Part shown: piece after piece, positions 3,677 through 20,780 of the stretch | Layout: every line of letters begins with the position of its first letter | Position numbering within the stretch: position 1 is the stretch's first letter | From: an uncultured Chitinophagaceae bacterium | Lineage (GTDB): Bacteria; Bacteroidota; Bacteroidia; Chitinophagales; CAIOSU01 | NCBI GenBank assembly: GCA_964430605.1 | Contig: CAYSGX010000002.1 | Location: 1 to 38,159, forward strand | Direction: 5' to 3' | Length of the DNA: 38,159 bases | The notes under the pieces: generated by a model | Database searches by the model: none | What the model was told of the DNA's origin: nothing | What the model saw: only the letters and a program-made list of their open reading frames with translations | Translations under genes and position numbers: made by a program

Positions 3677-3745
3677 GCAGCTCTTCTTTCAGTCGTTCGT
3701 TGGCTTTGTGTGGCTTGCAAATGTGTGTGCTTGTGTGTTGGCGTT
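3677..3745. repeat. TG-rich intergenic repeat, copy A (left border of island 1)
   Basis: Contains GTTGGCTTTGTGTGGCTTGCAAATGTG (3699-3725) followed by TGTGTGTTGGC (3732-3742), which abuts the R-M stop codon at 3744. Matches copy B. Confidence 0.8.
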
Positions 3746-6700
3746 AATTCAGATACTTTTTTAATATTTGCTCTTTCTGTTTTGGGATGTCAGCTAACTG
3801 TTTTTGCAATACAGCTATTTTTGTTTCAATCTTTTCTATTGCTGCAACTATTTTTTTTTGTTCTTCGATAGATGGTAAAGGGATTTTAAATTCTTCTAAT
3901 TGCAGTTTTGTAATTGCTTCTCTTGAAGTAGCACCGTCCCCAATTTCTAAAAGTTTCGTTTTATATTCTGAACTAACCAATATTGTCTGAACATATTTGG
4001 GTAATGCTTTTTCATTTGTCCGAATTATAGAAACGTGTTGATTTACTCTTGCAGGTAAATATTTATCTTCTACTATACAGCATCTTGCTATGGAAGCACC
4101 AGTAATATTGAAAAGAATGTCATTTTTCTCAACGGTGACATTGTCTAACTTTTTAGCTTGTTCATCACTAATAAAAGCAAGACCTTTTTCTATAAATTCA
4201 GAATCATAAATGTTTTGACTTCTTATTAAGCTAATCCCACTCGTTCGATAAGAACCCTTACCTCCCAAAGGCGTTGCCCCGCTGCCTATTTTGGTCGTAA
4301 TTTCTTCAAGTTTGGTTAAAGCACCTTTTGAAGTATTGATAGTTGTTCCAAAATTTTCTCTTAGTTTTTCAATTTCCTCAATCGCTTTTTGTTCTTGCTT
4401 TTCCAATGCTTCGATTTCAGCAACTATTTTTTGCTGAATGTTGATTGGTGGAAGTGGAATTTTAATATCCAATAAGTTGCCTCGATTAAGTCCACCTTGA
4501 GCTTGACCTGTAATATTTGCTTTTAATAATTGTTGACCTTTTTTTGAAAGCAACAAATTGAATAGAAACTTTTGATGAGATTTCTTATTAGTTCTTAGTA
4601 GAAAAACGTGTTCATTAATAATTGAACTTTCATAACCTAAATCGTTAGTTCTAAATAATGCAACCTTACCTGTCAACGCTCCATCTTTGCAAATAAGAAT
4701 ATCTAAATCATTTAAAATTCCTTGTTTTGAAGATTTGAAAAATTCAACAGGTACAAATTTTAGATTACTTTTACTAATATAAATCTTACCATTTAAGCCA
4801 ATGTGTTCACCTCCTAAACTTGGTATACCTTCTTGATATTCACTAACACCACCTTTGGGTCTATTTCCGCTTTCTAATACTTCTAAGATTGTAGAGAGTT
4901 TTGTTTGGTCGTATTTACTTTCGATTACTATTTTTTTTTTAGCCGAAAGCGATATGTTCTTTTCAAAATCTACACGGTCAAAAGTGAACATATCTACCAA
5001 GTTGCGGTAGCTTAGATTTTGATGTAAGATTTCTGGAATGCCTAAATCAAACTCACCTAAAAATGCTTTGTAAATATAGTAGCTTGCTTTTTCGGGGTTG
5101 GTAAAGCTATCCGCATCATACAATTGTGTGCACTCGTCTATACTTTTACTTCGTTGAATAGGATGTATGCCTTCGCTACCTCTACGGTTACTAAACTCAT
5201 ATCCTAAAAAGCGTTTTTCAGCATCTTTTTCTCCTGTTTTTACCAACACCAACTTTTGAGGGTATGCCAATATAAAATAAAGCAACTTGTCTTGTTCTAC
5301 TGCTAAGATATTCGTCCAATGTTCTTGTTCATTTTTGGCTTTAATCTTCTTGGTATATTCTTTATAAATTTCGTGTTGCTCAATAGCGGCATTGGGCTTC
5401 TGTTGCAACAACGTTTTGTAATCATCAAAAGAAATATTGTCCCAAACGTGGGCTACATATTTTTTGAGTGGTTTTTCAATGCCGTTTATGGTTACATCTT
5501 GTAGCGATACAAAACATTTTTTTATTGCTTCTGTTATATTGTAAGCATCCGCATTGTTTCTGCGTCTTAAAAATAATGTAACGGTATTTGTTCCCGTTGC
5601 CATAAAGGTATTTGAGCCTAATTCTGCAATACCTAAAATTTCAAAGTGCTTTAATAGAATTTCTCTTGTTTGAGTGTAAATGCCTGTATTGCTCAAAATA
5701 CTACTTGGCAAAATGATACCTGCTACACCACCATCTTTTAATAGCTGTTTAGTACGTTCAATAAACAAACATTCTATTTCAGAACTTTGGTCGGTTAGTC
5801 GGTTGTATAAATCAAAGCCCAACTTCGCTTTTTCTTCATCCATTAAACCCTTAAAAGCGGATACGGAATAAGGCGGATTTGAAATAATAATATCAAATTC
5901 TTTATTGTCTTGCGGATAGGTTTTATCGGTTTCTTTCAATAAATCTTTAAACTCTTTTGAAGTGCTAAAATCTCCCAAACCATCACCGTGAATTACTTTT
6001 GCCAAACCATCTCCGTGCAGATAGCAACTTACTTTGGCTGTCTTTACTAAACGATAATCTTTTTCAATACCATAAACGTAGGTTTCAGCCCAATCAAATT
6101 GGTCTTCTTTCCATTTTTTGATGGCTCTTTTGGTAGTAGGATTAAAAGAACTTTCATCCAAATTGTCAATGTAATTTTGAATAACTTCCATTGATTCGGT
6201 GATAAAATGCCCACTCCCCGCTGCATAATCAATTACAGTTGGTAACAAGTCATTTTTATTTCCCTGCTCAATTTTCTGTGCTGTTATTTCTTGAAATGGT
6301 AAACTTTTAATAATAAATCGAGCAATCGGAACTGGTGTGAAAAACTGTCCTGATTCTTGCTTTAATCCTGTAGTTAAAAGCAATTCAAAGAAATCACTCA
6401 AAAATTGCTGACGGTAATTGTAACGTATTTGATATACTTGAAGCAGCTCAACTACTTCTTTTACCACTTTGGCATTTTCTTCAAAAGAAGTATCATCATA
6501 CACTTCTTTTATTGCAAATTCATTATTTTTTTTAAGCCGAATTTCGGTTAAAATATCCTTGAATTTATCTCTGTACTGAATGTCAACGTGTAAAAATTGT
6601 TTATCAAATTCGCTGTCGCTAACGTCTGTAACTTTCTTTTCCAAAAGTTCGAGCATTCCTCTGTTATAAAGGTCTGTCAGTCTTTTTTGAAACGAAACGT

Positions 6701-7535
6701 GAGTATCTTCTCCTTCAAGCCATTGGAAATGCAATTGCTCGTCTGGATTTCTGTTTTCATCAACAATTTTGCAAAGGAAAAGTGTAAATATTTTGTTGAA
6801 AGCGTTCGGTTTATCAGAAACTACATTGTGTCTTAGTATTTCCAAAAAGCGATTAAAAATGAAACTACTGTCTTCTTGTTTTAAAACTTTTAAGTCGTTT
6901 TTTGTAAGTGCCTTACTTTGAAATTCATAAGGCTTTACCCAACTTTCAAAAATACCATTGGTTTTAGGTAGTTTATTCCAACGCTCGAAAAAGTCTTTTA
7001 CATTTCCTGCTTGTCGGTAATCATCTTCAATTTTTGTAATGACGTTTTTAAACTCAATGTTTTTTCCTTGAAGTTGCGAAGCGTAAAGCATAAGAATATC
7101 AGCATCCTTATCCTGTTGGAAGTAAGTAAAAAGCTGACCACCGTTTCGTTCTAAATTTTTAAATTCTTTGTCAAATTCTGCTCCCCAAGTCTTGCATTCA
7201 ATCATTAGGTAAGCCGAACCATTGTCACGAGTTACCAAAATATCTAATCGTCCGCTTGTGCCGTGTCCGGTTCGCCAAGTTTTTTCTAAAACAATATTTT
7301 GAGGTAAATAACCTTTTTCTAAAAGTCTGTCAACACATTCAAGAACAACCCAATTTTCTGCTTGTGAAAAATTTTGAGTGGTTTTGCTTTCGCCTTTTAT
7401 CTTCTTTCCAAAATCGAAAGTTGAGTTCTCAAAATCAATTTCAATGGCGTAGCCATTGTATTTTTTATGAAAAATACCTGAAGTATTTTCTTTAGGTGTA
7501 AATCCTAATGTTTGTATGAAGTTTTTGTAGTTCAT
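3744..7535 (-). CDS. Single-polypeptide restriction-modification-specificity enzyme (Type IIB/IIG architecture: PD-(D/E)XK nuclease + N6-adenine methyltransferase + two HsdS-like TRDs)
   Basis: 1263-aa ORF. N-terminal nuclease core: GRLDILV..YLMIECK (D98/E112/K114). Gamma-class N6A MTase motifs: GQFFTP, motif I VIDYAAGSGHF, and motif IV NPPY at nt 5868-5879. Two target-recognition domains follow (about nt 4461-4913 and 3891-4313), each ending in a conserved helix (IPLPPINIQQKIVAEIEALE / IPLPSIEEQKKIVAAIEKIE). Confidence 0.85.
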   Translation of the reverse strand: MNYKNFIQTLGFTPKENTSGIFHKKYNGYAIEIDFENSTFDFGKKIKGESKTTQNFSQAENWVVLECVDRLLEKGYLPQNIVLEKTWRTGHGTSGRLDILVTRDNGSAYLMIECKTWGAEFDKEFKNLERNGGQLFTYFQQDKDADILMLYASQLQGKNIEFKNVITKIEDDYRQAGNVKDFFERWNKLPKTNGIFESWVKPYEFQSKALTKNDLKVLKQEDSSFIFNRFLEILRHNVVSDKPNAFNKIFTLFLCKIVDENRNPDEQLHFQWLEGEDTHVSFQKRLTDLYNRGMLELLEKKVTDVSDSEFDKQFLHVDIQYRDKFKDILTEIRLKKNNEFAIKEVYDDTSFEENAKVVKEVVELLQVYQIRYNYRQQFLSDFFELLLTTGLKQESGQFFTPVPIARFIIKSLPFQEITAQKIEQGNKNDLLPTVIDYAAGSGHFITESMEVIQNYIDNLDESSFNPTTKRAIKKWKEDQFDWAETYVYGIEKDYRLVKTAKVSCYLHGDGLAKVIHGDGLGDFSTSKEFKDLLKETDKTYPQDNKEFDIIISNPPYSVSAFKGLMDEEKAKLGFDLYNRLTDQSSEIECLFIERTKQLLKDGGVAGIILPSSILSNTGIYTQTREILLKHFEILGIAELGSNTFMATGTNTVTLFLRRRNNADAYNITEAIKKCFVSLQDVTINGIEKPLKKYVAHVWDNISFDDYKTLLQQKPNAAIEQHEIYKEYTKKIKAKNEQEHWTNILAVEQDKLLYFILAYPQKLVLVKTGEKDAEKRFLGYEFSNRRGSEGIHPIQRSKSIDECTQLYDADSFTNPEKASYYIYKAFLGEFDLGIPEILHQNLSYRNLVDMFTFDRVDFEKNISLSAKKKIVIESKYDQTKLSTILEVLESGNRPKGGVSEYQEGIPSLGGEHIGLNGKIYISKSNLKFVPVEFFKSSKQGILNDLDILICKDGALTGKVALFRTNDLGYESSIINEHVFLLRTNKKSHQKFLFNLLLSKKGQQLLKANITGQAQGGLNRGNLLDIKIPLPPINIQQKIVAEIEALEKQEQKAIEEIEKLRENFGTTINTSKGALTKLEEITTKIGSGATPLGGKGSYRTSGISLIRSQNIYDSEFIEKGLAFISDEQAKKLDNVTVEKNDILFNITGASIARCCIVEDKYLPARVNQHVSIIRTNEKALPKYVQTILVSSEYKTKLLEIGDGATSREAITKLQLEEFKIPLPSIEEQKKIVAAIEKIETKIAVLQKQLADIPKQKEQILKKYLN

Positions 7536-7858
7536 TAGAATTTCATTTTACCTTGTTTTACGTTCTTATTTCTCAAATACTTCCACTGGCTTTCTGCTAC
7601 AGTGAACACAGCATCAGAACATTGGTATTTATGAACTTCTTCAACCAACTTGTCAGCAACATATAGGGTTTTTAACTCCACATAATCTTTCTCTAAAAAT
7701 TTTGCAAGTGCTTCAAGGCTTGTAAAGGGAAATTTTTTCTTTCCAGTTTCTATTTTGGAAATTTCGGTCATAATAATGCCGAGAGGTTGCCCAAACTCAC
7801 TTTGGTTTAACCCCTTCTTATTTCTTTCGGCTCTCAAAAACTCTCCAAATGTTGCCAT
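7535..7858 (-). CDS. XRE-family helix-turn-helix protein, probable controller (C) protein of the adjacent R-M gene
   Basis: 107-aa ORF with an HTH_XRE-like N-terminus (FGEFLRAERNKKGLNQSEFGQPLGI..ISKIETGKK). Its TAA stop shares one base with the R-M ATG (TAATG, nt 7533-7537), implying translational coupling. Confidence 0.7.
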   Translation of the reverse strand: MATFGEFLRAERNKKGLNQSEFGQPLGIIMTEISKIETGKKKFPFTSLEALAKFLEKDYVELKTLYVADKLVEEVHKYQCSDAVFTVAESQWKYLRNKNVKQGKMKF

Positions 7859-10110: not shown

Positions 10111-10205
10111 TCTTTGTGTTGGCTTTGCAAGTTCTTATGTTCCCGATAGCTATCGGGATTGGTTTGAGTGTCAGCATTAAGCGGTTTGCAAATGTGCTTG
10201 CAAAT
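10111..10205. repeat. TG-rich intergenic repeat, copy C (left border of island 2), split by a segment holding an 18-bp perfect palindrome
   Basis: TTTGTGTTGGCTTTGCAAG (10113-10131) and GCGGTTTGCAAATGTGCTTGCAAAT (10181-10205) resemble the two halves of the A/B unit. Between them lies TCCCGATAGCTATCGGGA (10141-10158), which is self-complementary and followed by TTGGTTT. It may be a small terminator for cmk. Confidence 0.6.
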
Positions 10206-10215
10206 AGCGTTGATG

Positions 10216-11241
10216 TTATTCATTTTGGTTCATCTGCGAACGAATGAGTGCAATTTCCTGTATCAATTCTTCTTCTGTCGGAATATATAGTTTGTATTTG
10301 GTCGCAAATAATTTTTGGTTGTCGTTAAGTATTGAAAAACGCACTTCCGCACGGTCTTTTTCTTCGCAAAGAATAATTCCGATTGTCGGGTTGTCGCCTT
10401 CGGTGCGTTTCAGTTCGTCATACATACGCACATACATATCCATTTGTCCAACGTCTTGGTGTGTCAATTTTCCTATTTTCAGGTCTATCAGCACAAAGCA
10501 TTTCAGAATATAGTTGTAAAACACCAAGTCAATGTAATAATGTGAAAGTTCTGTATTGATACGTTGTTGGCGGTTTACAAACGAAAATCCTTTGCCGAGT
10601 TCCAATAGGAATTTTTGCAAGTTGTCAATAATGGCTTGTTCTACTTGGCTTTCGCTGAATTTTTGATTTTCTTTTAATTCGTAAAAATCCAACACAAGCG
10701 GGTCTTTCAAAATAAAATCCTGTGGATTTAGGGAAAGTTGGTTTGAATTTTCGGTACTTAATTCATTTAAAGTTTCTTTGTGTGTTGAAATCAAGCGTTC
10801 GTAATAGTGTTTGTCCACTTGTTCGTCTAAAAACCTTGTACTCCAAACATTTTGAGCCGCTTCGTTCATATAAAGTTCTCTGGCTTTCGGGTTTTCAACA
10901 CGCAAAAGCGAACGGTAATGTGTCCAACTTAATTCTTTACGCAGTGCGTAAACATTTGGAAATTGCAGGTAAAATTTACGCATATTGGTAAGGTTCACAT
11001 AGGTAAAACCTTTGCCAAACTCCTTTTGTAAGCGTTCAGAAACAGATTTTAGCAAACTTTCGCCATATTTAGCGTATTGTTCGCCTCCTTGTTCTTCCAC
11101 AATTTTTTGCCCAATATGCCAATAGGTTTCTACCATAGCAAAATTAGCCGCTTGAAACACTTTTTGGCGGGCATTTAGTATCAGTTCTCTTGAAAACTGA
11201 TACAAATTATTGCTGTTTTCTATGTTTTGTTGTTCAGGCAT
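10216..11241 (-). CDS. DUF1016/YhcG-family PD-(D/E)XK nuclease-domain protein
   Basis: 341 aa. N-terminal DUF1016 pattern: YWHIGQKIVE, KYGESLLKSVSERL, SWTHYRSLLRV. C-terminal nuclease core: YYIDLVFYN..FVLIDLKIGK. Confidence 0.85.
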   Translation of the reverse strand: MPEQQNIENSNNLYQFSRELILNARQKVFQAANFAMVETYWHIGQKIVEEQGGEQYAKYGESLLKSVSERLQKEFGKGFTYVNLTNMRKFYLQFPNVYALRKELSWTHYRSLLRVENPKARELYMNEAAQNVWSTRFLDEQVDKHYYERLISTHKETLNELSTENSNQLSLNPQDFILKDPLVLDFYELKENQKFSESQVEQAIIDNLQKFLLELGKGFSFVNRQQRINTELSHYYIDLVFYNYILKCFVLIDLKIGKLTHQDVGQMDMYVRMYDELKRTEGDNPTIGIILCEEKDRAEVRFSILNDNQKLFATKYKLYIPTEEELIQEIALIRSQMNQNE

Positions 11242-11250
11242 TGTTTACAT

Positions 11251-12009
11251 CTAATAATTTTGTTTTATCAATGATTTCAATTCCTCAACAGACACCAGTT
11301 CCTTTCCCCGATGGATTATAGAATGGCAATTAGGACATACCGGAATCAAATCTTTTATCGGGTCAAGAACATATTCTTTGCCGATTTTTGATAATGGAAC
11401 AATATGATGAACATGAATGAAACCTTTTCCTATTTCTCCATAAAAGTTATAAAAATCGAAACCACAAGCATTACAAACCGCTCCATAGTGTTCAATACAT
11501 AACCTTCGTGCAAGCGGATTTCTTTCAAACTTATTTATGACAACCGATTTTACAGCACCTTCGTAAATGGGAGAATCTTCGCTAACATAAGATTGTATTT
11601 CATCATCAAGCGGATAATAAAAACTTTCATTTAATTGCCAAGAGATTTTAACCGGAGTGCTATCTATAAAATCTTTAATCTTAACCGTTCCTTCAAATGT
11701 AAAAGGTTCTTTATCGTTAGTTCTGGTAAAAAGGAAAATACTTTGATTAGGTTCGGGGTTTAGCATTTTTCTTATTGAAGGTTGATTTATGTTAGAATTT
11801 GTTTTGGCTTCCCATTTAAAAATTTCCCCGTCCCAAAAGTTATTATAATCATGTCCTGTCCTTCCCGGGATTCCGACATTTGAAAAGATATAAATATTTC
11901 CTTCGTATTCTCTGTATCCTGTATCCCAAGCTCCTTTTTTCCTTTCATCAGGAACTTTTAAAAGCTCGTAAATATCGTTTTTAGTGTATGTTTTATTTAC
12001 TTCAAACAT
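11251..12009 (-). CDS. HNH endonuclease with an N-terminal DUF3427-like (putative DNA/modification reader) domain; Type IV-restriction-like
   Basis: 252 aa. C-terminal His-Me finger: CNACGFDF..HVHHIVPLS..PVCPNCHSIIH. The N-terminal ~135 aa (IYIFSNVG..HDYNNFWDGEIFKWEA..SIFLFTR..PFTFEGTV..PVKISWQL) matches my memory of the DUF3427 pattern but needs an HMM test. Confidence 0.8.
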   Translation of the reverse strand: MFEVNKTYTKNDIYELLKVPDERKKGAWDTGYREYEGNIYIFSNVGIPGRTGHDYNNFWDGEIFKWEAKTNSNINQPSIRKMLNPEPNQSIFLFTRTNDKEPFTFEGTVKIKDFIDSTPVKISWQLNESFYYPLDDEIQSYVSEDSPIYEGAVKSVVINKFERNPLARRLCIEHYGAVCNACGFDFYNFYGEIGKGFIHVHHIVPLSKIGKEYVLDPIKDLIPVCPNCHSIIHRGKELVSVEELKSLIKQNY

Positions 12010-12010
12010 A

Positions 12011-13321
12011 TTAAGGATACATAATTGCTATTCCAAGCCTTGCGGTATGGGAAGATAGTTTTTGCAGAATATCAGCAAATAATTTATCCTTCGCTTTCAT
12101 TAAGATTTTATATTTAGAAGAATCTTTTAACTCACTTTCTTTAATCGTTTGAAATCTGTAAAAATCAAAAATTATCATTTGAGGTTTTTCAAACCCCTCA
12201 ATATTTACCGGATATAAAAAAGTGTAAAAATTTTCGGCTTTAAAAAGGCTTTTATCCCCTTTCAAAATAGGTTTATCATAATCCATTTGTATTCCTCCTA
12301 CAATTCTTGAAAACGATTGCTTTTTATTTAGAGCAAAATCACAAGGCGGAGTTATTTCTACACAAATTCTACGCTTCTTTAAGTTTTTAAAGTCATCGTG
12401 AGTGTCTATATTTATTTCATTATTTTTTTTATCCAGAATTTCTTTAATGTAAAGAGGTGAATTTTCATCAGCAATCTCATATATGTTTCCCGGAATTACG
12501 GAATCTTGTGATAAGTTTTGGAAATCTAACAGTAGTAATGAGTTAAGTTTTGAGAATACTTTTGTTTTTTCTTCAGCCGATTCATTGTATGTCAGATTAT
12601 TCGGTTGTGAGAATAAATTTTGAATGTTTTGATAGTTATTGGATGTTTCAAACTGTAAAGTATCCATTAATGATTTCACTAAGTCTTTTTGTAAATCATA
12701 ATTTGCGGTACTGCTTTGAGGTATTCCGGTATAGTTACAGGCTAAAGTATATAAGACGGATTCGAGATGTTTATTTTTTTTATCATTTGTATCAAACAAA
12801 TCATACAATGTTGATATGGTACAATCCGAACCTTTCTTAACGGCTTTGTTCCACTCAATGAAAAATGAAGATGAAACATCTTTTGCTAATTTTTCTTCTA
12901 ATTCCTCTAAAACCCCTTCATAATTCCCTTTTGTTTTATATTTGTTCTTTTCCAAAGAAACAACAAATAACGGTAAAGTAAACGAGTTTGTTTTTAAGTA
13001 TATCTTATCGCAAAATTCTCCAAAATGATTAGAATGTTTAGTCCATAATACTACTCCATACGTACCAAAGTCTTTATCTATAATTGTTTTAAAATATTTT
13101 CTTATCAGTGCGATATTTTCGGTACTACTTCTTTCATCTTGCAGATATAAATCCAAAAAAATTAATTTCCTGTTGTTAAAAGAAGTACTTTTTGTTTCCA
13201 ATTCATTTGGATGATAATATTTAGTCCAAATATCTTTTTCTTCCAAATATTTTATCAAATCGTTTACTTCTTCCTTATCATCATCGATAACCAAAGCACT
13301 TGTTATAAATCCTTGTAACAT
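12011..13321 (-). CDS. Receiver (REC) domain protein with an unassigned ~300-aa C-terminal domain (candidate effector)
   Basis: Track ORF 12011-13417, but its first 32 codons overlap the upstream gene. The ATG at 13321 lies 4 nt after the upstream stop. REC signature: ALVIDDD, LIFLDLYL (candidate phospho-acceptor D57, nt 13151-13153), VVLWTKH (T94), VVSLEK (K125). I recognise no motif in residues ~135-437. Confidence 0.65.
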   Translation of the reverse strand: MLQGFITSALVIDDDKEEVNDLIKYLEEKDIWTKYYHPNELETKSTSFNNRKLIFLDLYLQDERSSTENIALIRKYFKTIIDKDFGTYGVVLWTKHSNHFGEFCDKIYLKTNSFTLPLFVVSLEKNKYKTKGNYEGVLEELEEKLAKDVSSSFFIEWNKAVKKGSDCTISTLYDLFDTNDKKNKHLESVLYTLACNYTGIPQSSTANYDLQKDLVKSLMDTLQFETSNNYQNIQNLFSQPNNLTYNESAEEKTKVFSKLNSLLLLDFQNLSQDSVIPGNIYEIADENSPLYIKEILDKKNNEINIDTHDDFKNLKKRRICVEITPPCDFALNKKQSFSRIVGGIQMDYDKPILKGDKSLFKAENFYTFLYPVNIEGFEKPQMIIFDFYRFQTIKESELKDSSKYKILMKAKDKLFADILQKLSSHTARLGIAIMYP

Positions 13322-13325
13322 ATTT

Positions 13326-15428
13326 TTATTTTTTTTCTTTCGGAAAACAGAGAGCAACAATTGCTTTATTGACTTTATTTTCTTTAACAGGTTTTGGAAA
13401 ATCAATGTCGTTTTCATCTGAAATTAATATTAGCTTACCTTTCATGGCGGTCATCATCTCATTGGCTACATGAAGTCCTAACCCCGAACCGATATTGTGC
13501 GGTTTACCTGTTAAGAAAGGCTTTACGGCAACATCAAAAGGCAAATTAAATCCCGGACCGTTATCGGAAACAATAATCGAGTTATAGCCTTGTATCTGGT
13601 CGGTGATGTATACCGAAATAAACCTGCCGGATTTTCTTGCGTAACTTAACCAATATATAGCATTATCCAAAAGATTTGTTATTACGGATATTGATTCCGC
13701 TTCTGCTAAATAAGCTTCCAACTTGTTCTCTTTCCAGTTTGAAATAACATTAATGGAATGGTCTATAAATCTGAATTCATAATTATCTAAAGCAGTGGAA
13801 ACAATTTTGCTTAAAGGATTGAGCTTAATATCGGATTTTTTAAGCATAGCGGAATAACCTCGTATTATTTTTTCCAATGACAGAGATATTCGAACTGCTT
13901 TTTCTTTTTCGTTTCGTTCAATACAGCCTGTCAATTCAGCTATAAGCTTATCTAATTCGTGTATAACGATACCTAAATTTAATCCGGCATTTGCGCTTTT
14001 TATTAAAACTTCTTTTACCTCTTTATATTGGTCATTAATCCTGTATAAATATTTCAATACTTCATCTTTAACTTCTTTTTCCTTAACTTTTTCTTCTACA
14101 ATATTCATCACCTCATTCAAATCAGATAAAACAGGTTCTACGGCTTTGTGTTTTTTATACAAAGAAGTTAATAAGGATTTATCTATATTTCTTTCTCTAA
14201 CGATTAATGATAATACGTAATCAATGGCTTCAACAAAGTCAAAATAAGATTCGTTTTCTATAAATCCTTCTCTGTTTGTTTTTTCTACCAATCCTTTACT
14301 TAAAGCTCTATCTATTTTAACCGCACCAATAATGATATTGTTGCTGACATTTCCACCTACCCGATGTACTCTTTTCAAATCAATGCCCAACCAATCATTA
14401 TCCCTTTCGCCATAATTATATACTCTTACACCGTCTCTGTAAACCCTTATACCTCCGTTTTCTTTCAAATATGTTTTCAGAGCTGTTTTTTCCGTATTTA
14501 CATAGCTGAATATTTGAGCATCCGTATCGAAAATAATTACATCAAACTCAATTGTTCCGATATTACTTTGATTCAAGTCAATATCTTCGAATTTTCGGGT
14601 ATCGTAATTCCATTTTTTAATTATTTTGTCTTCTTCAATTAAATCGTTTAGGTTTACTTCTCTGCCCTTATCTATTTTTTGTAAACTGCTCCAAGGTTTA
14701 AATTCATATTTAAACTCTATTATTTCACCGTCTTTCATTTTGCAATGTCCGAAGTAAAGAGCATTGTTTTTAATATCTTCAAAATCAGGTAAGCCTTCAA
14801 AAACATTTGTATTGCTTGTCGCTAATACATTAAATGAATCGTTATTTTCGGAAAAAGGACTGTTTAGTGAGGTAATGTTTCTGTGAACTTCCCTTAATTG
14901 TCTTCTATCCCAATCCGTTTTTAAATCTTCAATAATTATTTTTGTACCTGTTGCGTTTAGAAAAACAGTCGGTTTACTTTTTTCATTTACATCTATAGTA
15001 AAATCATCAATGTTTTTTGCAGATTTAAGTTGATTCCAATCTATCTTTAATTCAACTTCATTATCATTTTTTGTTTTGGAAACTAATGTAATTTTATTCC
15101 CCAATTTGTGTATTCCCAATCTCCCTATTCCTTTTTCTCCTAAAGGTATTCTTCCGCAAACATTAGGTTCAAGATTCTTTTTTTTATTATCAGTTCCTAC
15201 CACTAACCAAACCGTTTCAATAATGTTTTTATTCATTCCGAAACCGTCATCTTCAATAGTTAATTTAGTTAACTTATTACCGCTAAATATAAAATCAACG
15301 ATACAATGAGTTGCACACGCATCATAAGAATTTTTAATCAATTCAAATAAGGCGATACTCTCATTTTTAATTAAATCTTCTCCCAGATGAGATAAAACAC
15401 GAGGCGTTATAGAAAACTTTAATTTCAT
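13326..15428 (-). CDS. Dual GHKL protein: N-terminal MutL/MORC/Hsp90-type ATPase fused to a histidine-kinase-like module (H-box + HATPase_c)
   Basis: 700 aa. N-terminal Bergerat motifs: FELIKNSYDA (E29/N33/D36), IEDDGFGM, GEKGIGRLG. Candidate H-box: GIVIHELDKLIAEL (H490, nt 13959-13961). C-terminal kinase-type boxes: ITNLLDNAIYW (N box), VSDNGPGF (G1), GSGLGLHV (G2). The ATG overlaps the dcm stop (ATGA, 15425-15428). Confidence 0.75.
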   Translation of the reverse strand: MKLKFSITPRVLSHLGEDLIKNESIALFELIKNSYDACATHCIVDFIFSGNKLTKLTIEDDGFGMNKNIIETVWLVVGTDNKKKNLEPNVCGRIPLGEKGIGRLGIHKLGNKITLVSKTKNDNEVELKIDWNQLKSAKNIDDFTIDVNEKSKPTVFLNATGTKIIIEDLKTDWDRRQLREVHRNITSLNSPFSENNDSFNVLATSNTNVFEGLPDFEDIKNNALYFGHCKMKDGEIIEFKYEFKPWSSLQKIDKGREVNLNDLIEEDKIIKKWNYDTRKFEDIDLNQSNIGTIEFDVIIFDTDAQIFSYVNTEKTALKTYLKENGGIRVYRDGVRVYNYGERDNDWLGIDLKRVHRVGGNVSNNIIIGAVKIDRALSKGLVEKTNREGFIENESYFDFVEAIDYVLSLIVRERNIDKSLLTSLYKKHKAVEPVLSDLNEVMNIVEEKVKEKEVKDEVLKYLYRINDQYKEVKEVLIKSANAGLNLGIVIHELDKLIAELTGCIERNEKEKAVRISLSLEKIIRGYSAMLKKSDIKLNPLSKIVSTALDNYEFRFIDHSINVISNWKENKLEAYLAEAESISVITNLLDNAIYWLSYARKSGRFISVYITDQIQGYNSIIVSDNGPGFNLPFDVAVKPFLTGKPHNIGSGLGLHVANEMMTAMKGKLILISDENDIDFPKPVKENKVNKAIVALCFPKEKK

Positions 15429-16483
15429 TTCCCCCTGTTTTGTATTATTGCTTTTCCAATAGCTTGGGCATATTTTGGCGGAACGGCATTTCCTATCATT
15501 CTTGCGGTATTTGAAATGCTTGTTGTTTTAAAAATGTAATTTTTAGGAAATGATTGTAATACTGCTCCTTCTCGTAAGGAAATGGCTCTGTTTTCTTCCG
15601 GATGTGCAAATCGTCCGTTTGAAATACTGAAAAACTTTGTTGTAATTGTGGGAGAAGGTTTGTCCCACCACATTCTGCCGTATGTATCTTTAAAATTGTC
15701 TTTATCGTTTTTATGACAATTGGGTGCTAATTCGGAATTGTCGGCATAAGCTAATCTTGTTCCACCATTTTTTTTCGTTACGGCAAGCCTTTTTAAATTG
15801 ATTTCTTGTAATCCCGCCACTGTATGCAGAAAAGTAGAATTGTCTTTATACCCCGCTTTTACTTTTGGGAAACCGTTGTGTTCTCCTAAAACATCTCTAA
15901 CGGTCAGCTTTTCACCTTTAGCTTTTACAGGCTCTATTTCTGTTTTGGTTACTCTGTTGGCAATAAGCGTAAATCTTCTTCTATGTTGTGGAACACCATA
16001 ATTACTTACTTCGTGAACATCAAAATGCACTTTATAGTTATTATCCTTTAGCCACTCGATAAAATCTTCCAATCCGCTTTCAGTTTTTCTTCTCAAAACG
16101 CCCGGTACATTTTCAACAATCACATAACCCGGTACAAAATATTCTACAAAACGCCTAAACTCTTTCAATAAATCTTTTGATTTTTCCGATTTATTTTTGT
16201 CCGTGTTAATGATGCTCCAAAATTGACACGGACTGCAACCGATAAGCACCAAATTTTTATCGTTTTTCTTTAATGAAAGTTGTTTTTCTAACTCTGTTTC
16301 CTTTAATTCAAAAACATCAGCGTGAATAAATTTTGCTCCTTTTATGTTTGATATGTACGTCTCTTCGCAGGTTTTATCAAAATCTATTCCCGCAAGAATT
16401 TCTATTCCTGCTTGCTGCATTCCGTAGCTCATTCCGCCTCCGGAACAGAAAAAATCAACTGCTTTTATGTTGTTTTTTTGCAT
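15425..16483 (-). CDS. dcm: DNA (cytosine-5)-methyltransferase
   Basis: 352 aa with FCSGGGMS (motif I), GCSPCQFWS (motif IV, PCQ), IVENVPG (motif VI), QHRRRF (motif VIII) and GNAVPP (motif X). Confidence 0.93.
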   Translation of the reverse strand: MQKNNIKAVDFFCSGGGMSYGMQQAGIEILAGIDFDKTCEETYISNIKGAKFIHADVFELKETELEKQLSLKKNDKNLVLIGCSPCQFWSIINTDKNKSEKSKDLLKEFRRFVEYFVPGYVIVENVPGVLRRKTESGLEDFIEWLKDNNYKVHFDVHEVSNYGVPQHRRRFTLIANRVTKTEIEPVKAKGEKLTVRDVLGEHNGFPKVKAGYKDNSTFLHTVAGLQEINLKRLAVTKKNGGTRLAYADNSELAPNCHKNDKDNFKDTYGRMWWDKPSPTITTKFFSISNGRFAHPEENRAISLREGAVLQSFPKNYIFKTTSISNTARMIGNAVPPKYAQAIGKAIIQNRGK

Positions 16484-16886
16484 TAATTACTTCTTCAAAA
16501 GTATCGGCACAAAGTAATGAATTTTTCTCAATATCTCGACCCCAAAACCGCAAAATAATCCAACCTTCCTTTGTCAGTTGTTCGTTCACTTCCTTGTCTC
16601 GCTCTATGTTTCGCTGAATTTTCTTGTGCCAAAATTCAATGTTTGATTTGTGTTCGTGTTTTTTTGATTCCCAATTTTTACCGTGCCAAAATTCACTATC
16701 GCAAAAAACAGCGATTTTATATTTTTTGAAAACGAAATCAGGTTTACCGAAAACCGTTTTGTCATTTTTCTGATAACGATAGCCTCTTTTCCATAATTCT
16801 TTACCCAACAAAACTTCAATTTTTGAACCTTTGTTTTTTACGGCTTGCATATTTTTACGTCTTTGTTCCTTAGTCAATTTATCCAT
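16455..16886 (-). CDS. vsr: Very-short-patch repair endonuclease (T:G mismatch)
   Basis: 143 aa. RRKNMQAVKNKGSKIE..LWKRGYRY..GKPDFVFKKYKIAVFCDSEFWHG..WILRFW matches the Vsr family. The 3' end overlaps the dcm start by 29 nt. Confidence 0.9.
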   Translation of the reverse strand: MDKLTKEQRRKNMQAVKNKGSKIEVLLGKELWKRGYRYQKNDKTVFGKPDFVFKKYKIAVFCDSEFWHGKNWESKKHEHKSNIEFWHKKIQRNIERDKEVNEQLTKEGWIILRFWGRDIEKNSLLCADTFEEVINAKKQHKSS

Positions 16887-16963
16887 TTTATGTGCTACAT
16901 TTTAAAAATATAGTGAAAATATTTGCACATTTATCAAATGTTTATATATATTTGTATTCTGAA
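16887..16963. promoter_or_regulatory. 77-bp divergent control region between the vsr-led and GHKL-led operons
   Basis: This is the only non-coding DNA between two back-to-back operons. On the + strand, TTTG (16922-16925) and TATATTTG (16947-16954) fit the Bacteroidetes -33 TTTG / -7 TAnnTTTG pattern. The palindrome ACATTTatcAAATGT (16927-16941) lies between them. Confidence 0.5.
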
Positions 16964-17215
16964 ATGAAAAACAAAGTTAGCAAAATGTCTTCTGTTAAAC
17001 GAGATAGATTCGAAAAAGTGGCTTCAAACCGTGTCCAAAAAATTATAGATTTTTTGGGGTTGCTCGGTAATTGTGCCAATAAGAATAATTACGAATACAC
17101 GGAAAAAGACGTGGAATTAATGTTTAAAGAAATTAACCGTGCTTTAAAAGAAACGAAAACGCTTTATGATAAAGAATTGAACAAAACGGGAAAAGCGGGT
17201 TTTAAATTTGAATAA
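16964..17215 (+). CDS. Small hypothetical protein, first gene of the plus-strand cassette
   Basis: The track ORF starts at GTG 16892 inside the promoter region. ATG 16964 (MKNKVSKMSSVKRDRFEKVASNRVQKIIDFLGLLGNCANKNNYEYTEKDV..) or ATG 16985 is more plausible. The stop lies 2 nt before the next ATG. Confidence 0.55.
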   Translation: MKNKVSKMSSVKRDRFEKVASNRVQKIIDFLGLLGNCANKNNYEYTEKDVELMFKEINRALKETKTLYDKELNKTGKAGFKFE

Positions 17216-17217
17216 AA

Positions 17218-19209
17218 ATGGAAGTAAAAAATATGGAGAAAAATTGTACTTGGCATTTTAAAGAAGAAGGCGGACGTGATGTTGGTCCAAATGACCCGAT
17301 TGATGAAAAGTTTAAAGGTCAACCTTATTATTCAATTGTTCGGGAAGCAATACAAAATTCATTAGATGCAGTGATGAATGACCAACAACCTGTAAAGGTT
17401 GTTTTCAGTTTTTTTGAAATTGACAGAAAAAATTATCCTAACTTTTTTCAGTTAGAAAATCATATTACCCAAAGTCAGCAATACTATTCCGACAACGATA
17501 ATGCAAAACGATTATTCGGAAATATGTTGGAATACCTTAACGGAAAAGAACCCAATAAGAAAAAACTAAAAATTTCGTGTATGCGTATTTCCGACTATAA
17601 TACGGTCGGAATGAATTATGATGCATAAAATACAAACTCGCCATTTTATGCTTTTTTGCGTGCAGGTGGTGTTAGTGCCAAAAGTCAAGGAGCTGGCGGT
17701 TCGTTTGGTTTCGGAAAAGGTGCTTACTATACACTTTCTCCGATTAAAACAATTGTGGTTTCAACTCGTGATAATGATAACAATGTATTTTTTGAAGGCT
17801 CAACTATTTTGACGACTCATAAAAATGCAACCAATCAGAAATTAACGGCTTACGGATATTATGATAACAACAACGGAGAACCGACACAAAACAACGATGA
17901 TATTCCCGAAGTTTTTCAGAGAACAAAAATCGGAACAGATGTGAACATTATTGGTTTGTGGAAAGAAGATGATAGGAAAAAGCTGATGATTAAATCTGTT
18001 CTCAATAACTTTTGGTTAGCGATTTATCATAAAAAACTCGTTGTTCAAGTTGATGATGTTACGATAAGTGAAAACAACATTGAACAAATAATTGACCAAT
18101 ATTTTGAAGGCGAATTTGAAAGCGGAAAAGCAGATGAAATTGAATCGTGGAATCCGAAAGCGTATTTCAAAGCAGTAAAATATGCAGGAAACCATGACCA
18201 ATATAAAGTGTTTGAAGATGAATTGAATACTATCGGGCAAGTAAAGCTATATGTTTATTTAGAAAAAGGTTTACCGAACCGTACAGCATATTTCAGAAAA
18301 CCTAAAATGGTTGTATTCAAACGAACAAACGGAAAAGTAAAAGGATATGTTGCGGTGTTTGTTTGTGAAAATGAGAAAGGAAACGAAATGCTCCGTCTAA
18401 TGGAAAATCCTGCACACAACGAATGGAAAGAAGAAAACTATCCAAAGAATGAAGGAGATATTGATACAAATGCTCGAAGAGGACGTATAGAAATAAGTGA
18501 TTTCATAAATAGAACGCTTGAATCTTTGGCAAAAATCAAAACAGGCAACAAGATTGCATTTGTAGGTTTGGAAGAATACTTGTCCATTCCCGAAGATTTG
18601 TTGGAAAAAGACGAAGAATACGATTTTGAAGGACAGAGTACAAGTAACGTTTCAGGACAATCAAGCAATGAAAATACCGAAGATGAAACAGGAATGCTCA
18701 CAAGCGATAAAACAGAACCTGTAACCATAAAACCAACCGTCAAAACACAACAGTCGGAAGCAAAAGGAGAAACCAATATTGAAGTAACGGAAGAAGGAGA
18801 AGAAACCATAACCGTAGGTGGAGAAAACGAAAGTGAAGGTGGAGATGCTCCGCCAAGTGATTTGGGCGATAATGTAAATACTGGAAATCGAACAGATGAA
18901 AGTCCGAATAAAAGCAGAACGGTTATAAAAGTACGTTTAAGAGTTGCGGCACAAACAGAAAACGAAGTTTTATTTCATCATTTGATTGTAAATTCCGATA
19001 ACGAAATTGAAAATGCAGAATTGGAATTGCTTGTAAGTGGCGATAATGATAGAGATGACAGCATTTCAATTATATCAAGCGACAAAGGAACTGTTTCAAA
19101 AAATACAATCAAAAATCTAAAACTTGACATAGGCGTAACCAAAATAAAAATACGCTTTGCAGACAACATTAAACACTCGGTAAAACTCAAAGCGTATGAA
19201 ATTCAATGA
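17218..19209 (+). pseudogene. MutL/MORC/Hsp90-type GHKL ATPase (663 codons) interrupted by one in-frame TAA at 17626-17628
   Basis: Track ORFs 17218-17628 and 17656-19209 are in the same frame (offset 438 nt). Reading through gives ..ISDYNTVGMNYDA*NTNSPFYAFLRAGGVSAKSQGAGGSFGFGKGAYY. Motif I REAIQNSLDA and motif II DYNTVGM lie upstream of the stop; the glycine-rich lid GGSFGFGKG lies downstream. Confidence 0.75.
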
Positions 19210-20050
19210 TGTTACTTTTCCGCATCCTGTGCTTGGTGTTGGCGATGCAATTAGCGGAAAAACAGGATTTACAAAAGAACCCGAAATAAGTAAAACACAA
19301 GATAGTTACAAGGTTACAATAGAATGTAATCTTGATAATGACGATTTGAAAAAGTTTCTGCAAGAAAACAAAGTGGAGTTTTTGTGTGACGTAACTTGTA
19401 CAAATACTGTTTACAGAGAAAACATTGTAAGCAATAGTGAAAAAATTGAATTTGATATTCATAGAAAACAAGTCAAAGGAAAAGTAGAATTTACTTGTGT
19501 ACTTGTGGCAAAAGAAAATTTGCAGAACTATTCAAATTCAAAAGCACATTCAGATTACAACGGATTTACTTTTGACTTGGACAAAGGCGATGTGTTGGCG
19601 TTCTTCGGAGAATTTACATTTGATGCCGATATAAAATACGAAAAACTAAAAGCCGTTTCTTCATTTATGGAAGTGGTAGAAAACGAAGCAATAGAATACA
19701 CAAACATTGATTTGAAAAAACCGAAAATTGAAGTTCAACTTCCGCCAAATGATTACAACGCATACAAAAGCGATGCAATTTCACACGAAATTAAATTTGC
19801 TCCAATGTTTCATTCTTCGCTTGTATTAAATGCGTTGTTAATTGCTCTGTATAATTTTGAAGAACACAAAGAGTATTTGTGGGCAAAAGCAATAGAATAC
19901 CGATTAAAAAACGACAAGGAACTAAACAGTATAAATTTTCAAGAAAAAGAAAACATTCCGGAAATAGCACAACGCTTATTGGGAAATCCGTTTAGCCGTT
20001 TGTTAAACGGATTGAATGTTATTGTTGAATCATTAGAAGAAGAAAATTAA
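19196..20050 (+). CDS. Hypothetical protein (284 aa), no family recognised
   Basis: ATG 19196 overlaps the GHKL gene end by 14 nt. The ORF is long and clean, beginning MKFNDVTFPHPVLGVGDAISGK. Confidence 0.7.
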   Translation: MKFNDVTFPHPVLGVGDAISGKTGFTKEPEISKTQDSYKVTIECNLDNDDLKKFLQENKVEFLCDVTCTNTVYRENIVSNSEKIEFDIHRKQVKGKVEFTCVLVAKENLQNYSNSKAHSDYNGFTFDLDKGDVLAFFGEFTFDADIKYEKLKAVSSFMEVVENEAIEYTNIDLKKPKIEVQLPPNDYNAYKSDAISHEIKFAPMFHSSLVLNALLIALYNFEEHKEYLWAKAIEYRLKNDKELNSINFQEKENIPEIAQRLLGNPFSRLLNGLNVIVESLEEEN

Positions 20051-20051
20051 A

Positions 20052-20780
20052 ATGGCAAAGCAAATTATATTCAAAGATAAATACGTTCAAAAATTAAAGA
20101 ACGAATTAAATATTGAGTTCTACAAGGCAAATAAATTTGTTTACGATAAGAAACAAATTTTGATGTTGCCTAATATTGAGAAAACGGAAAATTTGTTAGA
20201 GAGATTAGATGTAAATGATGATTGCAAAACGGCAATCCAAATTTACGAAGCCTTTCAAAAATTAGAACCGATACAAGCCTCAGATGAGCGTTTGTGGGTT
20301 TATCTTTCTCACGTTGATTTGTACTCGTATATGATTAAACGTTGGAATACCGGACATAGCGGAACGGTGAAAGATGAAAAAGCAAAAGAATATATTTTAG
20401 AACATTGGTTTTTGATTTCGTCAGCACAAAGCAGTTTGTTACGCCACGCTTTGGCCAGACTGTGGTGGTCGGTTTATTTGTCGGTTGATGAAACAAAAAA
20501 TGACAAGTATGAACTAACTAAAATTTTGTTTCGTCAGTTAGATTTTCCTACAAGAACGTTAGGAACGTACAAACTCGGTCGCCACAAAGAAGCTGTAATC
20601 GGAATTTTAGAGTTTATCAAAGAGAACGAAAATTTATTCAAAAATAAGTTCGAAGATAAAGCTCGTTTTATTACAAAACATTTGAATGTTGTCGGTGGTG
20701 TAAAACCTATTTCATATTACAACCGTATTTTTTTTAAGTTTGAATTGAAAAAAATGTCAAACGAAATTTCCAATATTTAG
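20052..20780 (+). CDS. Hypothetical protein (242 aa), no family confidently recognised
   Basis: Starts 1 nt after the upstream stop. It has W/R-rich conserved-looking blocks: DERLWVYLSHVDLYSYMIKRWN and LLRHALARLWWSVYLSVDE. Confidence 0.7.
   Translation: MAKQIIFKDKYVQKLKNELNIEFYKANKFVYDKKQILMLPNIEKTENLLERLDVNDDCKTAIQIYEAFQKLEPIQASDERLWVYLSHVDLYSYMIKRWNTGHSGTVKDEKAKEYILEHWFLISSAQSSLLRHALARLWWSVYLSVDETKNDKYELTKILFRQLDFPTRTLGTYKLGRHKEAVIGILEFIKENENLFKNKFEDKARFITKHLNVVGGVKPISYYNRIFFKFELKKMSNEISNI

Follow-up and report, generated by a model that had tools for sequence, protein, structure and literature searches.

The putative operon and its conserved core

We analysed a 38,159-nt stretch of DNA from an uncultured Chitinophagaceae bacterium (contig CAYSGX010000002.1, referred to below as the window) that carries a putative operon in which a cytosine methyltransferase gene is followed by genes for a histidine-kinase-like protein and a receiver protein. 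Six consecutive open reading frames (ORFs), all on the minus strand, span positions 16886-10216 in the ORF listing of the window. The first two are vsr (16455-16886, 143 aa), encoding a T:G mismatch (very short patch repair) endonuclease, and dcm (15425-16483, 352 aa), encoding a C5 cytosine DNA methyltransferase. They are followed by genes for a 700-aa GHKL/histidine-kinase-like protein (13326-15428; the GHKL protein), a 436-aa receiver protein (12011-13321; the REC protein), a 252-aa DUF3427-HNH protein (11251-12009) and a 341-aa DUF1016/YhcG PD-(D/E)XK protein (10216-11241). In hidden Markov model (HMM) scans, the vsr product matched Pfam Vsr (E 5e-29) and TIGR00632 (149.8 bits, cutoff 97.85), and the dcm product matched PF00145 (DNA_methylase, E 4e-53) and PADLOC MTase_II (E 3e-90). 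The genes are closely packed: vsr overlaps dcm by 29 nt, dcm overlaps the GHKL gene by 4 nt in an ATGA, and gaps of 4, 1 and 9 nt separate GHKL from REC, REC from HNH and HNH from DUF1016. The mechanical ORF of the REC gene begins at 13417; its start was set at the methionine at 13321, which is shared by all homologues and hence gives the 4-nt GHKL/REC gap. Judging from this spacing, the six genes are probably co-transcribed. Scans of the operon for sigma-70 promoters and intrinsic terminators gave counts no higher than the shuffled expectation, and such scans do not suit Bacteroidota promoters. The gene content and all five junctions are those given in an initial annotation of this DNA, whose domain assignments were likewise recovered, by HMM scans and, for the REC protein, by AlphaFold2 modelling and Foldseek.

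A scan of a genome collection with an alignment of REC homologues yielded 41 loci, mainly from Bacteroidota and also from Campylobacter, Calditrichales (Calditrichota), Ignavibacteria, Spirochaetales (Spirochaetes), one Lachnospiraceae metagenome-assembled genome (MAG) and others; their neighbouring genes were searched with the window proteins and clustered de novo. The GHKL gene was found directly upstream of the REC gene in all 33 loci having upstream sequence, and dcm immediately preceded the GHKL gene in 24 of the 31 informative loci, commonly with the same 4-nt overlap. A vsr homologue was present in 21 of the 41 loci. It stood upstream of dcm, as it does in the window, in L001-L003 and L013, and more often 0-7 nt after the REC gene (12 loci). 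Besides GHKL, dcm, REC and vsr, the only recurrent neighbour family was a McrB/McrC-like pair, seen in five Prevotella/Bacteroidales loci. The clustering therefore delimits a conserved unit of three to four genes (dcm, GHKL, REC and usually vsr), not six. In three loci (L032-L034, from Prevotella, Segatella copri and the Lachnospiraceae MAG), the place of dcm is taken by a 323-350-aa protein without a Pfam match, conserved between L033 and L034, which may be either a methylase that escapes recognition or another kind of partner.

The pairing of a kinase-like protein with a receiver, and the link of this pair to dcm and vsr, had been proposed in the initial annotation and are both upheld by the 41-locus comparison. 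Two other parts of that interpretation did not survive: only four of the six genes recur as a unit, and the core architecture is not undescribed, having been reported by Bellieny-Rabelo, Pretorius and Moleleki in 2021 (PMC8011034). These authors defined HEF_HK (PF19191), a DHp-like H-box lying between an N-terminal HATPase_c_3 and a C-terminal HATPase_c domain, and Response_reg_2 (PF19192), a REC-like domain of proteins without any other known domain. Linkage of the two genes was 91.6% in 644 regions, with a C5 methylase predominating upstream and Vsr usually encoded just downstream of the gene for the response regulator (RR)-like protein (PMC8011034). We refer to this pair as the canonical type.

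These counts bear on the simplest alternative, namely that the six genes are a stack of unrelated defence genes without any functional link. The DUF1016 and HNH genes are indeed interchangeable with other genes in relatives, and the locus lies in a low-G+C island together with other systems. Free shuffling of the genes among genomes, which the initial annotation had named as the outcome that would speak for such a stack, was seen in part: HNH and DUF1016 are separable from the core, whereas the GHKL/REC adjacency has no exception and the dcm link holds in 24 of 31 loci. For the four-gene core, a mere stack is contradicted by this adjacency, by the conserved overlaps of stop and start codons, by the published linkage and by the retention of the same gene frame where the GHKL/REC pair has been replaced (see below). 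We consider this alternative highly improbable.

The kinase-like protein and its receiver

The GHKL protein carries two ATP-binding domains, HATPase_c_3 (PF13589) at aa 25-143 (E 7e-19) and HATPase_c (PF02518) at aa 581-672 (E 1e-11). Its order is an N-terminal MORC/MutL-type ATPase, a conserved middle region, a DHp-like stretch containing H490-E491 and a C-terminal ATP-binding domain of the histidine kinase (HK) type. The N-terminal module (about aa 1-190; 14859-15428, minus strand), delimited by HMM matches and conservation, resembles paraMORC and MutL ATPases and is proposed to act as a DNA- or ATP-sensing clamp. The candidate autophosphorylation site is His490 (codon 13959-13961, minus strand), which is followed by Glu491 and sits 99 residues ahead of the N-box Asn of the C-terminal ATP-binding domain. 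Conservation was scored per column in 30 aligned sequences, the window protein and 29 homologues at 50-82% identity. At least 97% of the sequences keep E29, N33, D36, H490 and the DNG of the DNGPG motif (622-626), and at least 80% keep E491. Conservation reaches 80% or more at most positions of GEKGIGRLG (97-105) and GSGLG (646-650), and the DDGFG motif (60-64) is conserved only partially. N33, D36 and H490, singled out in the initial annotation together with D57 of the receiver, thus proved to be sound choices, all four being conserved in the homologue alignments. Among the PADLOC models, the GHKL protein matched only that of a Type II restriction endonuclease (REase), and only with its N-terminal part. 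Pfam scans gave no DUF4263 match in the GHKL protein. The Mza-type dcm/MutL/Z1/AIPR system, which the initial annotation had set apart from this cassette for its Z1 and AIPR genes, likewise combines a dcm-type methylase and a GHKL ATPase; the MzaB model reached 21 bits against the window proteins (cutoff 850).

Weak MutL and Hsp90 matches were also found at aa 18-124 of the GHKL protein. The former raise the possibility of a self-contained methylation-and-repair unit, in which a MutL-like GHKL protein would stimulate Vsr at T:G mismatches and no defence role would be involved. A functional interaction between MutL and Vsr is established in E. coli (cited in PMC2292703), and vsr co-occurs in 21 loci, where it is often joined to the operon end. 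However, no vsr is present in 5 of the 24 loci where dcm lies upstream of GHKL, and in L008, L009, L020 and L032-L034 the GHKL-REC pair stands without either dcm or vsr. Such a scheme also has no role for the kinase module or for a receiver with a large conserved output domain, and the setting is a defence island with a Type IIG restriction-modification (R-M) enzyme, PDC-M33 and PDC-S02 nearby. A pure repair function is therefore improbable in our view.

The REC protein had no match in Pfam, NCBIfam or PADLOC. Its AlphaFold2 model (pLDDT 85.7) has an N-terminal (beta-alpha)5 domain, and the matches returned by Foldseek with this model were all CheY-like receivers (probability 0.99-1.0, E about 1e-3). 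Three regions can be distinguished. The CheY-like REC domain covers aa 1-131 and is followed by a helical region at aa 137-264; the C-terminal domain (aa about 270-436) is rich in beta structure and closes with a long helix. Asp57 (codon 13151-13153, minus strand), at the end of beta3, is the candidate phospho-acceptor; it was invariant in two alignments of REC homologues, as was D13, while D14 and K125 were at least 90% conserved and position 94 was T or S. In the model, D13/D14 follow beta1, D57 beta3, T94 beta4 and K125 beta5, which are the canonical strand ends. The family is large: clustered at 50% identity, homologues of the window type fell into 1442 clusters (E<=1e-3) or 919 (E<=1e-10), with full-length matches, and a relative at 68% identity from Algoriphagus sp. 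NG3 is labelled "hypothetical protein" at NCBI. A receiver family this widespread and yet invisible to Pfam, NCBIfam and PADLOC will be missed by annotation and defence-finding tools.

Residues 133-436, modelled separately with AlphaFold2 (pLDDT 86.2), gave a helical bundle and after it a beta-rich domain that has a long helix at its end. The C-terminal output domain (12014-12514, minus strand) has in the alignment the signature PGN[IV]Y ... E-x-[TS]-P-x-C-D ... FDFR ... D-I-x-x-K-L-S-x-H-x-x-R-x-G; in this domain G, P, C, G, R and G are invariant and Y, E, D, K, D and D nearly so. This pattern looks enzymatic rather than like that of a DNA-binding output, and HMM scans detected neither a helix-turn-helix (HTH) nor another DNA-binding output in the protein. 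The best structural neighbours of the C-terminal domain in the PDB were MazF-type toxins (7bye_C and 6kyt_J; E about 0.1, probability 0.91-0.93, TM 0.6). A MazF/CcdB-like toxin identity was not supported by profiles and is retained as a fold hint only: hhalign of the domain against MazF, Kid and MazF-Bs gave a probability of 0.3%, the alignment used being itself a weak control, and a sequence-profile search of the PDB returned nothing relevant. A fold search of BFVD with the C-terminal model gave no usable match.

Taken together, we read the region as a composite of an R-M-like core gated by His-Asp phosphotransfer, a separate HNH gene and an independent DUF1016 gene, and assign this reading a probability of about 0.5. 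The methyltransferase would methylate host DNA at its target motif and so mark self, and Vsr would repair the T:G mismatches that arise from deamination of 5-methylcytosine. The N-terminal MORC/MutL-type ATPase and the conserved middle region of the GHKL protein would engage DNA, and DNA without the dcm mark, or some other infection cue, would switch on the C-terminal kinase module. This module would autophosphorylate on His490 and pass the phosphate to Asp57 of the REC protein, whose C-terminal domain would thereby be activated as an effector, either a nuclease or another growth-arresting activity. The DUF3427-HNH protein would be a separate modification-dependent nuclease that covers phages with modified cytosines from within the same operon. 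The phosphotransfer, the cue that is sensed, the effector role of the C-terminal domain and a function in phage defence are all what we infer here, and a phosphotransfer model is compatible with every motif.

The reading is supported by the unbroken GHKL-REC adjacency, the frequent linkage to dcm and vsr and the conservation of the signature residues, as well as by the published linkage of the canonical pair. Further support comes from the CheY-like fold of the receiver, the enzyme-like conservation of its C-terminal domain, the resemblance of the GHKL N-terminus to that of BbrUII/HgiDII enzymes, and the similar dcm and HNH proteins around GHKL/REC pairs of different subfamilies (see below). 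Detocs provides a precedent for His-Asp phosphotransfer gating an anti-phage effector, and paraMORC-nuclease coupling (PMC2292703), VcSduA and the GHKL-type BbrUII/HgiDII enzymes provide precedents from R-M. For every member of the region, the case rests on comparison of sequences and structures. A more specific version, R-M-type immunity in which methylation is read by a MORC-like clamp and relayed by His-Asp phosphotransfer to an effector not yet seen, with the pair serving as an exchangeable cartridge between methylase and nuclease, is put forward only tentatively.

Several observations weigh against the composite reading. The C-terminal domain proposed as the effector has no identifiable catalytic fold, its resemblance to MazF being weak, and no Pfam DHp model matched the GHKL protein, so that His490 is assigned by position and conservation only. 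Moreover, the GHKL-REC pair lacked an adjacent dcm in 7 of the 31 loci, a difficulty because the toxin of a classical R-M system could not survive without its methylase. In L009, L020 and L032-L034 the upstream genes that were checked were unrelated or without known identity, and in L008 no ORF was found upstream of the pair. In the seventh, L007 (427-3606; an uncultured Chitinophaga contig), a gene for an HpaII-family endonuclease (PF09561, E 9e-145) stands in the place of dcm and ends 1 nt before the GHKL gene, which suggests that the pair need not be the nuclease of a Type II R-M system and can occur alongside a complete one. The L007 contig ends 426 nt beyond the endonuclease gene; an ORF in this remainder, upstream of R.HpaII, was considered as a methylase fragment and set aside, as its translation is without methylase motifs and the contig ends there.

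The same loci are more easily accommodated if the pair is a regulatory two-component system that senses a cytoplasmic cue, such as nucleotide levels, and controls the neighbouring R-M or Type IV genes without being a toxic arm. A regulator could dispense with dcm more readily than a toxin could, and in L007 the pair follows a complete-looking HpaII endonuclease gene. Both the HK and the REC signature are unbroken, the neighbours of the pair include R-M, Type IV and other defence genes of various kinds, and a regulatory role was proposed by the authors of PMC8011034, as a speculation from computational work only. On the other hand, the REC protein lacks an HTH or any other known DNA-binding output, and its C-terminal part of 300 aa is conserved in the manner of an enzyme, with an invariant Cys, an invariant Arg and near-invariant Asp residues. 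The kinase-like protein starts with a DNA-manipulating ATPase of the MORC/MutL type and not with a ligand sensor, and the 1,136 aa of the two proteins would be unusually large for the dedicated regulator of one methylase. A regulatory pair is thus an arguable explanation that we nevertheless hold to be unlikely, and the composite reading is kept as the preferred one in what follows.

The 3′ slot and the surrounding island

The DUF3427-HNH protein matched DUF3427 (PF11907; 31.2 bits, cutoff 27.7) and HNH (PF01844; 31 bits, cutoff 21.4), and its HNH part matched E. coli McrA (6ghc, E 1.5e-6). It belongs to a family of at least 2256 clusters at 90% identity, many of them labelled McrA. In SauUSI, DUF3427 is the domain that senses 5mC and 5hmC (Lutz et al. 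2019, PMC6765204). Fusions of this domain to nucleases bind modified DNA, restrict T4gt, often lie beside C5 methylases in defence islands and are autonomous modification-dependent restriction factors in E. coli (PMC6765204). The characterised fusions (the SauUSI target recognition domain and the McaZI group) carry PD-(D/E)XK or phospholipase D-type (PLD) nucleases (PMC6765204), whereas the window protein has a C-terminal McrA-like CxxC...CxxC HNH domain after its N-terminal DUF3427. It is thus a candidate modification-dependent (Type IV/McrA-like) endonuclease; there is no characterised example of the DUF3427-HNH combination or of its position directly after a receiver gene.

In L005, L042/L043, L044 and L046, a DUF3427-HNH gene follows the receiver gene directly on its 3′ side. 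Only the first is one of the 41 window-type loci, and it is the only one of them with an HNH gene. In Elizabethkingia anophelis (L042) the order is vsr-dcm-GHKL(PF19191)-RR(PF19192)-DUF3427/HNH, identical to that of the window, and the metagenome contig L046 has the order dcm-GHKL-RR-HNH. Between the window on one side and the Elizabethkingia and L046 cassettes on the other, identity is 59-62% for the HNH proteins and 77-79% for the dcm proteins. In Niabella hibiscisoli (L044, 800-6774), also of the canonical type, the dcm, GHKL and receiver genes are broken into many short ORFs and the DUF3427-HNH gene downstream is intact; the core appears to have decayed and the HNH gene to have been retained. 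Since the gene recurs directly 3′ of the receiver in the other subfamily, it is a facultative partner, neither part of the conserved core, as its inclusion in the six-gene cassette had implied, nor a chance neighbour.

This recurrence also counts against the composite reading, for it leaves open that HNH is the licensed nuclease in these cassettes. In that case vsr, dcm, GHKL, REC and HNH would form one integrated system with the DUF3427-HNH protein licensed by the phosphorelay, as the initial annotation had it apart from DUF1016. The tight junctions favour such a system (1 nt after REC in the window, a 4-nt overlap with REC in L005, 0-10 nt after the receiver gene in L042 and L046), as do the same gene order around the other GHKL/REC subfamily and the similarity of the flanking dcm and HNH proteins. 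Close HNH homologues (at least 58% identity, with informative flanks) all occupy this position except that of L047, and HNH is the commonest nuclease near RR-like genes in Bacteroidetes, being the best-represented one in Chryseobacterium, Flavobacterium and Hymenobacter, and in some Proteobacteria (PMC8011034).

Against an integrated five-gene system stand the rarity of HNH among the window-type loci and the autonomous action of DUF3427-nuclease fusions in E. coli. Moreover, a Sodalis homologue and six more distant metagenomic relatives of the DUF3427-HNH protein stand alone. In four more canonical loci that were sampled, none of the three with downstream sequence carried HNH: nothing follows the receiver gene in Spirosoma, an AAA + DUF2357/PDDEXK_7 (McrBC-like) pair follows it in Fluviicola and a NOV_C/DUF3883 protein in Pedobacter. 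The fourth contig, from Sphingobacterium, ends at the receiver, with a weak HNH fragment upstream on the opposite strand. A survey of the 3′ slot (L024, L028, L031, L037, L040, L127, L129, L014 and L002) found McrB/McrC-like pairs (MrcB_N+AAA_5, DUF2357+PDDEXK_7) in six loci, the NOV_C/DUF3883 protein in Pedobacter, HEPN_AbiV in L014 and a protein kinase-ORC/CDC6-like (kinase-STAND) protein in Dysgonomonas; in other window-type loci the slot is empty. The slot is therefore variable, and modification-dependent nucleases seem to be enriched there. We regard an integrated five-gene system as rather unlikely and retain the composite reading, with HNH as a separate nuclease.

The DUF1016 protein matched DUF1016_N (E 4e-42) and YhcG_C (E 5e-55), and corresponds over positions 1-339 to positions 4-344 of the 351-position model of the PADLOC candidate PDC-S02 (PDLC04807, E 8e-132). 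A DUF1016 gene occurred in only one of the 41 related loci (L028), where it was not adjacent. It is an independent, stand-alone defence candidate that is co-oriented with the cassette and lies outside the conserved set. A 7-bp GC-rich hairpin, TCCCGATAGCTATCGGGA (10141-10158), lies where cmk and the DUF1016 gene converge; it is the only such element near the operon 3′ end and may be a bidirectional terminator.

The cassette lies between cmk and a divergently transcribed three-gene PDC-M33 candidate system. Its G+C content is 0.29-0.34 (window 11000-17000) versus 0.39-0.41 over 8-10 kb, which is consistent with horizontal acquisition; neither a tRNA nor flanking repeats, which would mark a mobile island, were found around the cassette. 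The PDC-M33 A/B/C genes (17218-20780, plus strand), a PADLOC candidate, diverge from vsr, with the third encoding a DUF6339 protein (20052-20780). An in-frame TAA (17626-17628) interrupts M33A, and the frame on either side of it is the same, which points to a nonsense mutation or else to an error of sequencing. In Flavobacterium zepuense (L006, 3573-6372), M33A/B are intact and occupy the same divergent position beside dcm-GHKL-REC. Just upstream of PDC-M33A, on the opposite strand to vsr and 5 nt from its start, is a 107-aa ORF (16892-17215, plus strand) without a match in Pfam, NCBIfam or PADLOC. On the other side, set apart from the cassette by the housekeeping gene cmk and a 380-aa ORF, lies a gene for a 1263-aa Type IIG restriction-methylase-specificity fusion (PADLOC REase_MTase_IIG, E 6e-243), preceded by one for a 107-aa HTH protein (7535-7858); the two together span 3744-7858 on the minus strand.

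Relation to known systems

A gated abortive effector of the kind proposed here has an experimental precedent in Detocs, which consists of the sensor kinase DtcA, the buffer receiver DtcB and the receiver-effector DtcC, and in which the H645A and D58A substitutions abolish defence (bioRxiv 10.1101/2023.01.24.525353). Detocs has, and the window pair is predicted to form, a cytoplasmic His-Asp phosphotransfer pair whose receiver carries a non-DNA-binding effector domain. Detocs differs from the window in its TPR sensor, in a third receiver gene that stands alone and in its usual effector, a PNP ATP-nucleosidase, and it is without a methylase, Vsr or a MORC-type ATPase; the ORF listing of the window contains no DtcB-like third receiver gene. 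PADLOC indicated no likeness to Detocs (no match for REC, and for GHKL only REase_II at the N-terminus), although the presence of Detocs models in PADLOC 2.0.0 was unconfirmed. If the proposal is right, the core would represent only the second defence family, after Detocs, shown to use His-Asp phosphotransfer, and it would join restriction-modification and two-component signalling, which are usually separate fields.

The paraMORC ATPases are established partners of R-M genes (Iyer, Abhiman and Aravind 2008, PMC2292703). They and the MORC ATPases have been proposed to form an ATP-driven DNA clamp that controls a nuclease (PMC2292703), and paraMORC3 is Shedu type I-D, such as VcSduA (PMC12137116). 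As with these proteins, the window encodes an N-terminal GHKL ATPase together with a cytosine methylase, Vsr and HNH or restriction endonuclease (RE)-fold nucleases. The C-terminal half of the GHKL protein, however, combines a DHp-like stretch with a catalytic module of the histidine kinase type, with no RecB/DUF4263 or TIR effector fused to it, and the output is placed on a separate receiver protein. Bacterial MORC-type ATPases, which are relatives of eukaryotic epigenetic silencers, would in this way gain a concrete signalling output. The GHKL N-terminus is most similar to the one of the BbrUII/HgiDII restriction enzymes; it aligned with positions 2-184 of their 659-position model (NF050001; E 4e-25, 88.5 bits, cutoff 550). 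The two have in common these 184 N-terminal residues and the position of the gene after a C5 methylase; the rest of the GHKL protein is unrelated, and the match does not extend to full length.

The closest relative by architecture is the canonical HEF_HK/Response_reg_2 pair, itself reported to derive from paraMORC ATPases (PMC8011034). A search of the literature library at hand found no experimental follow-up of this pair and no named system containing GHKL, receiver and dcm, and neither the window pair nor the canonical pair matched the system models of PADLOC 2.0.0. The initial annotation had recognised no named system in the gene set, and in line with this the pair had no match among the named and candidate systems of PADLOC, the N-terminal REase match of the GHKL protein being the one exception. 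Both pairs combine HATPase_c_3, a DHp-like stretch with H-[ED] and a C-terminal HATPase_c in one soluble protein, and in both the adjacent protein has an N-terminal REC-like domain and no other known domain. In both cases a C5 methylase gene lies directly upstream, Vsr is encoded nearby and genes for HNH or other nucleases are found downstream, and both have an affinity to paraMORC. Direct membership in the two Pfam families was nevertheless rejected, the positive controls having matched. The window GHKL protein had no match to PF19191 at E<=0.01, with the controls L042 and L046 at 1.5e-20 and 9e-16. The window REC protein and 55 relatives (15 + 40) had none to PF19192, the first set not even at E<=10, with the controls at 1.7e-21 and 7e-24.

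The distance between the two types is considerable. The window proteins are shorter than the HEF_HK examples and the Response_reg_2 examples (700 versus about 967 aa and 436 versus about 574 aa), the GHKL proteins of the window and of L042/L046 are 31-35% identical over the first ~150 aa only, and BLAST found no similarity between the REC proteins. In hhalign, the window receiver and the PF19192-type receivers aligned at full length with a probability of 1.2% and only over beta1-beta3 of REC, and the C-terminal domains of the two types with a probability of 6% (E 0.006). Short motifs are shared, namely a strand ending in x-T-x-x-C-D and a C-terminal H-x-x-R-x-G, and the canonical type is labelled "response regulator receiver domain" by NCBI. 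From these comparisons, we take the window GHKL/REC pair to be a divergent, database-invisible subfamily of the computationally described architecture.

Conserved dcm and HNH proteins enclose GHKL and REC proteins of different subfamilies in the window and in the Elizabethkingia and L046 cassettes. This is most simply read as an exchange of the kinase/receiver pair inside a dcm-HNH frame that has been conserved. Such an exchange would imply that the two subfamilies are functionally equivalent and fill the same place, and the apparent in-place replacement offers a clean natural experiment on which partners must match. Relative to the core architecture, known computationally since 2021 (PMC8011034), what is new here is the divergent, database-invisible variant and the apparent cartridge exchange.

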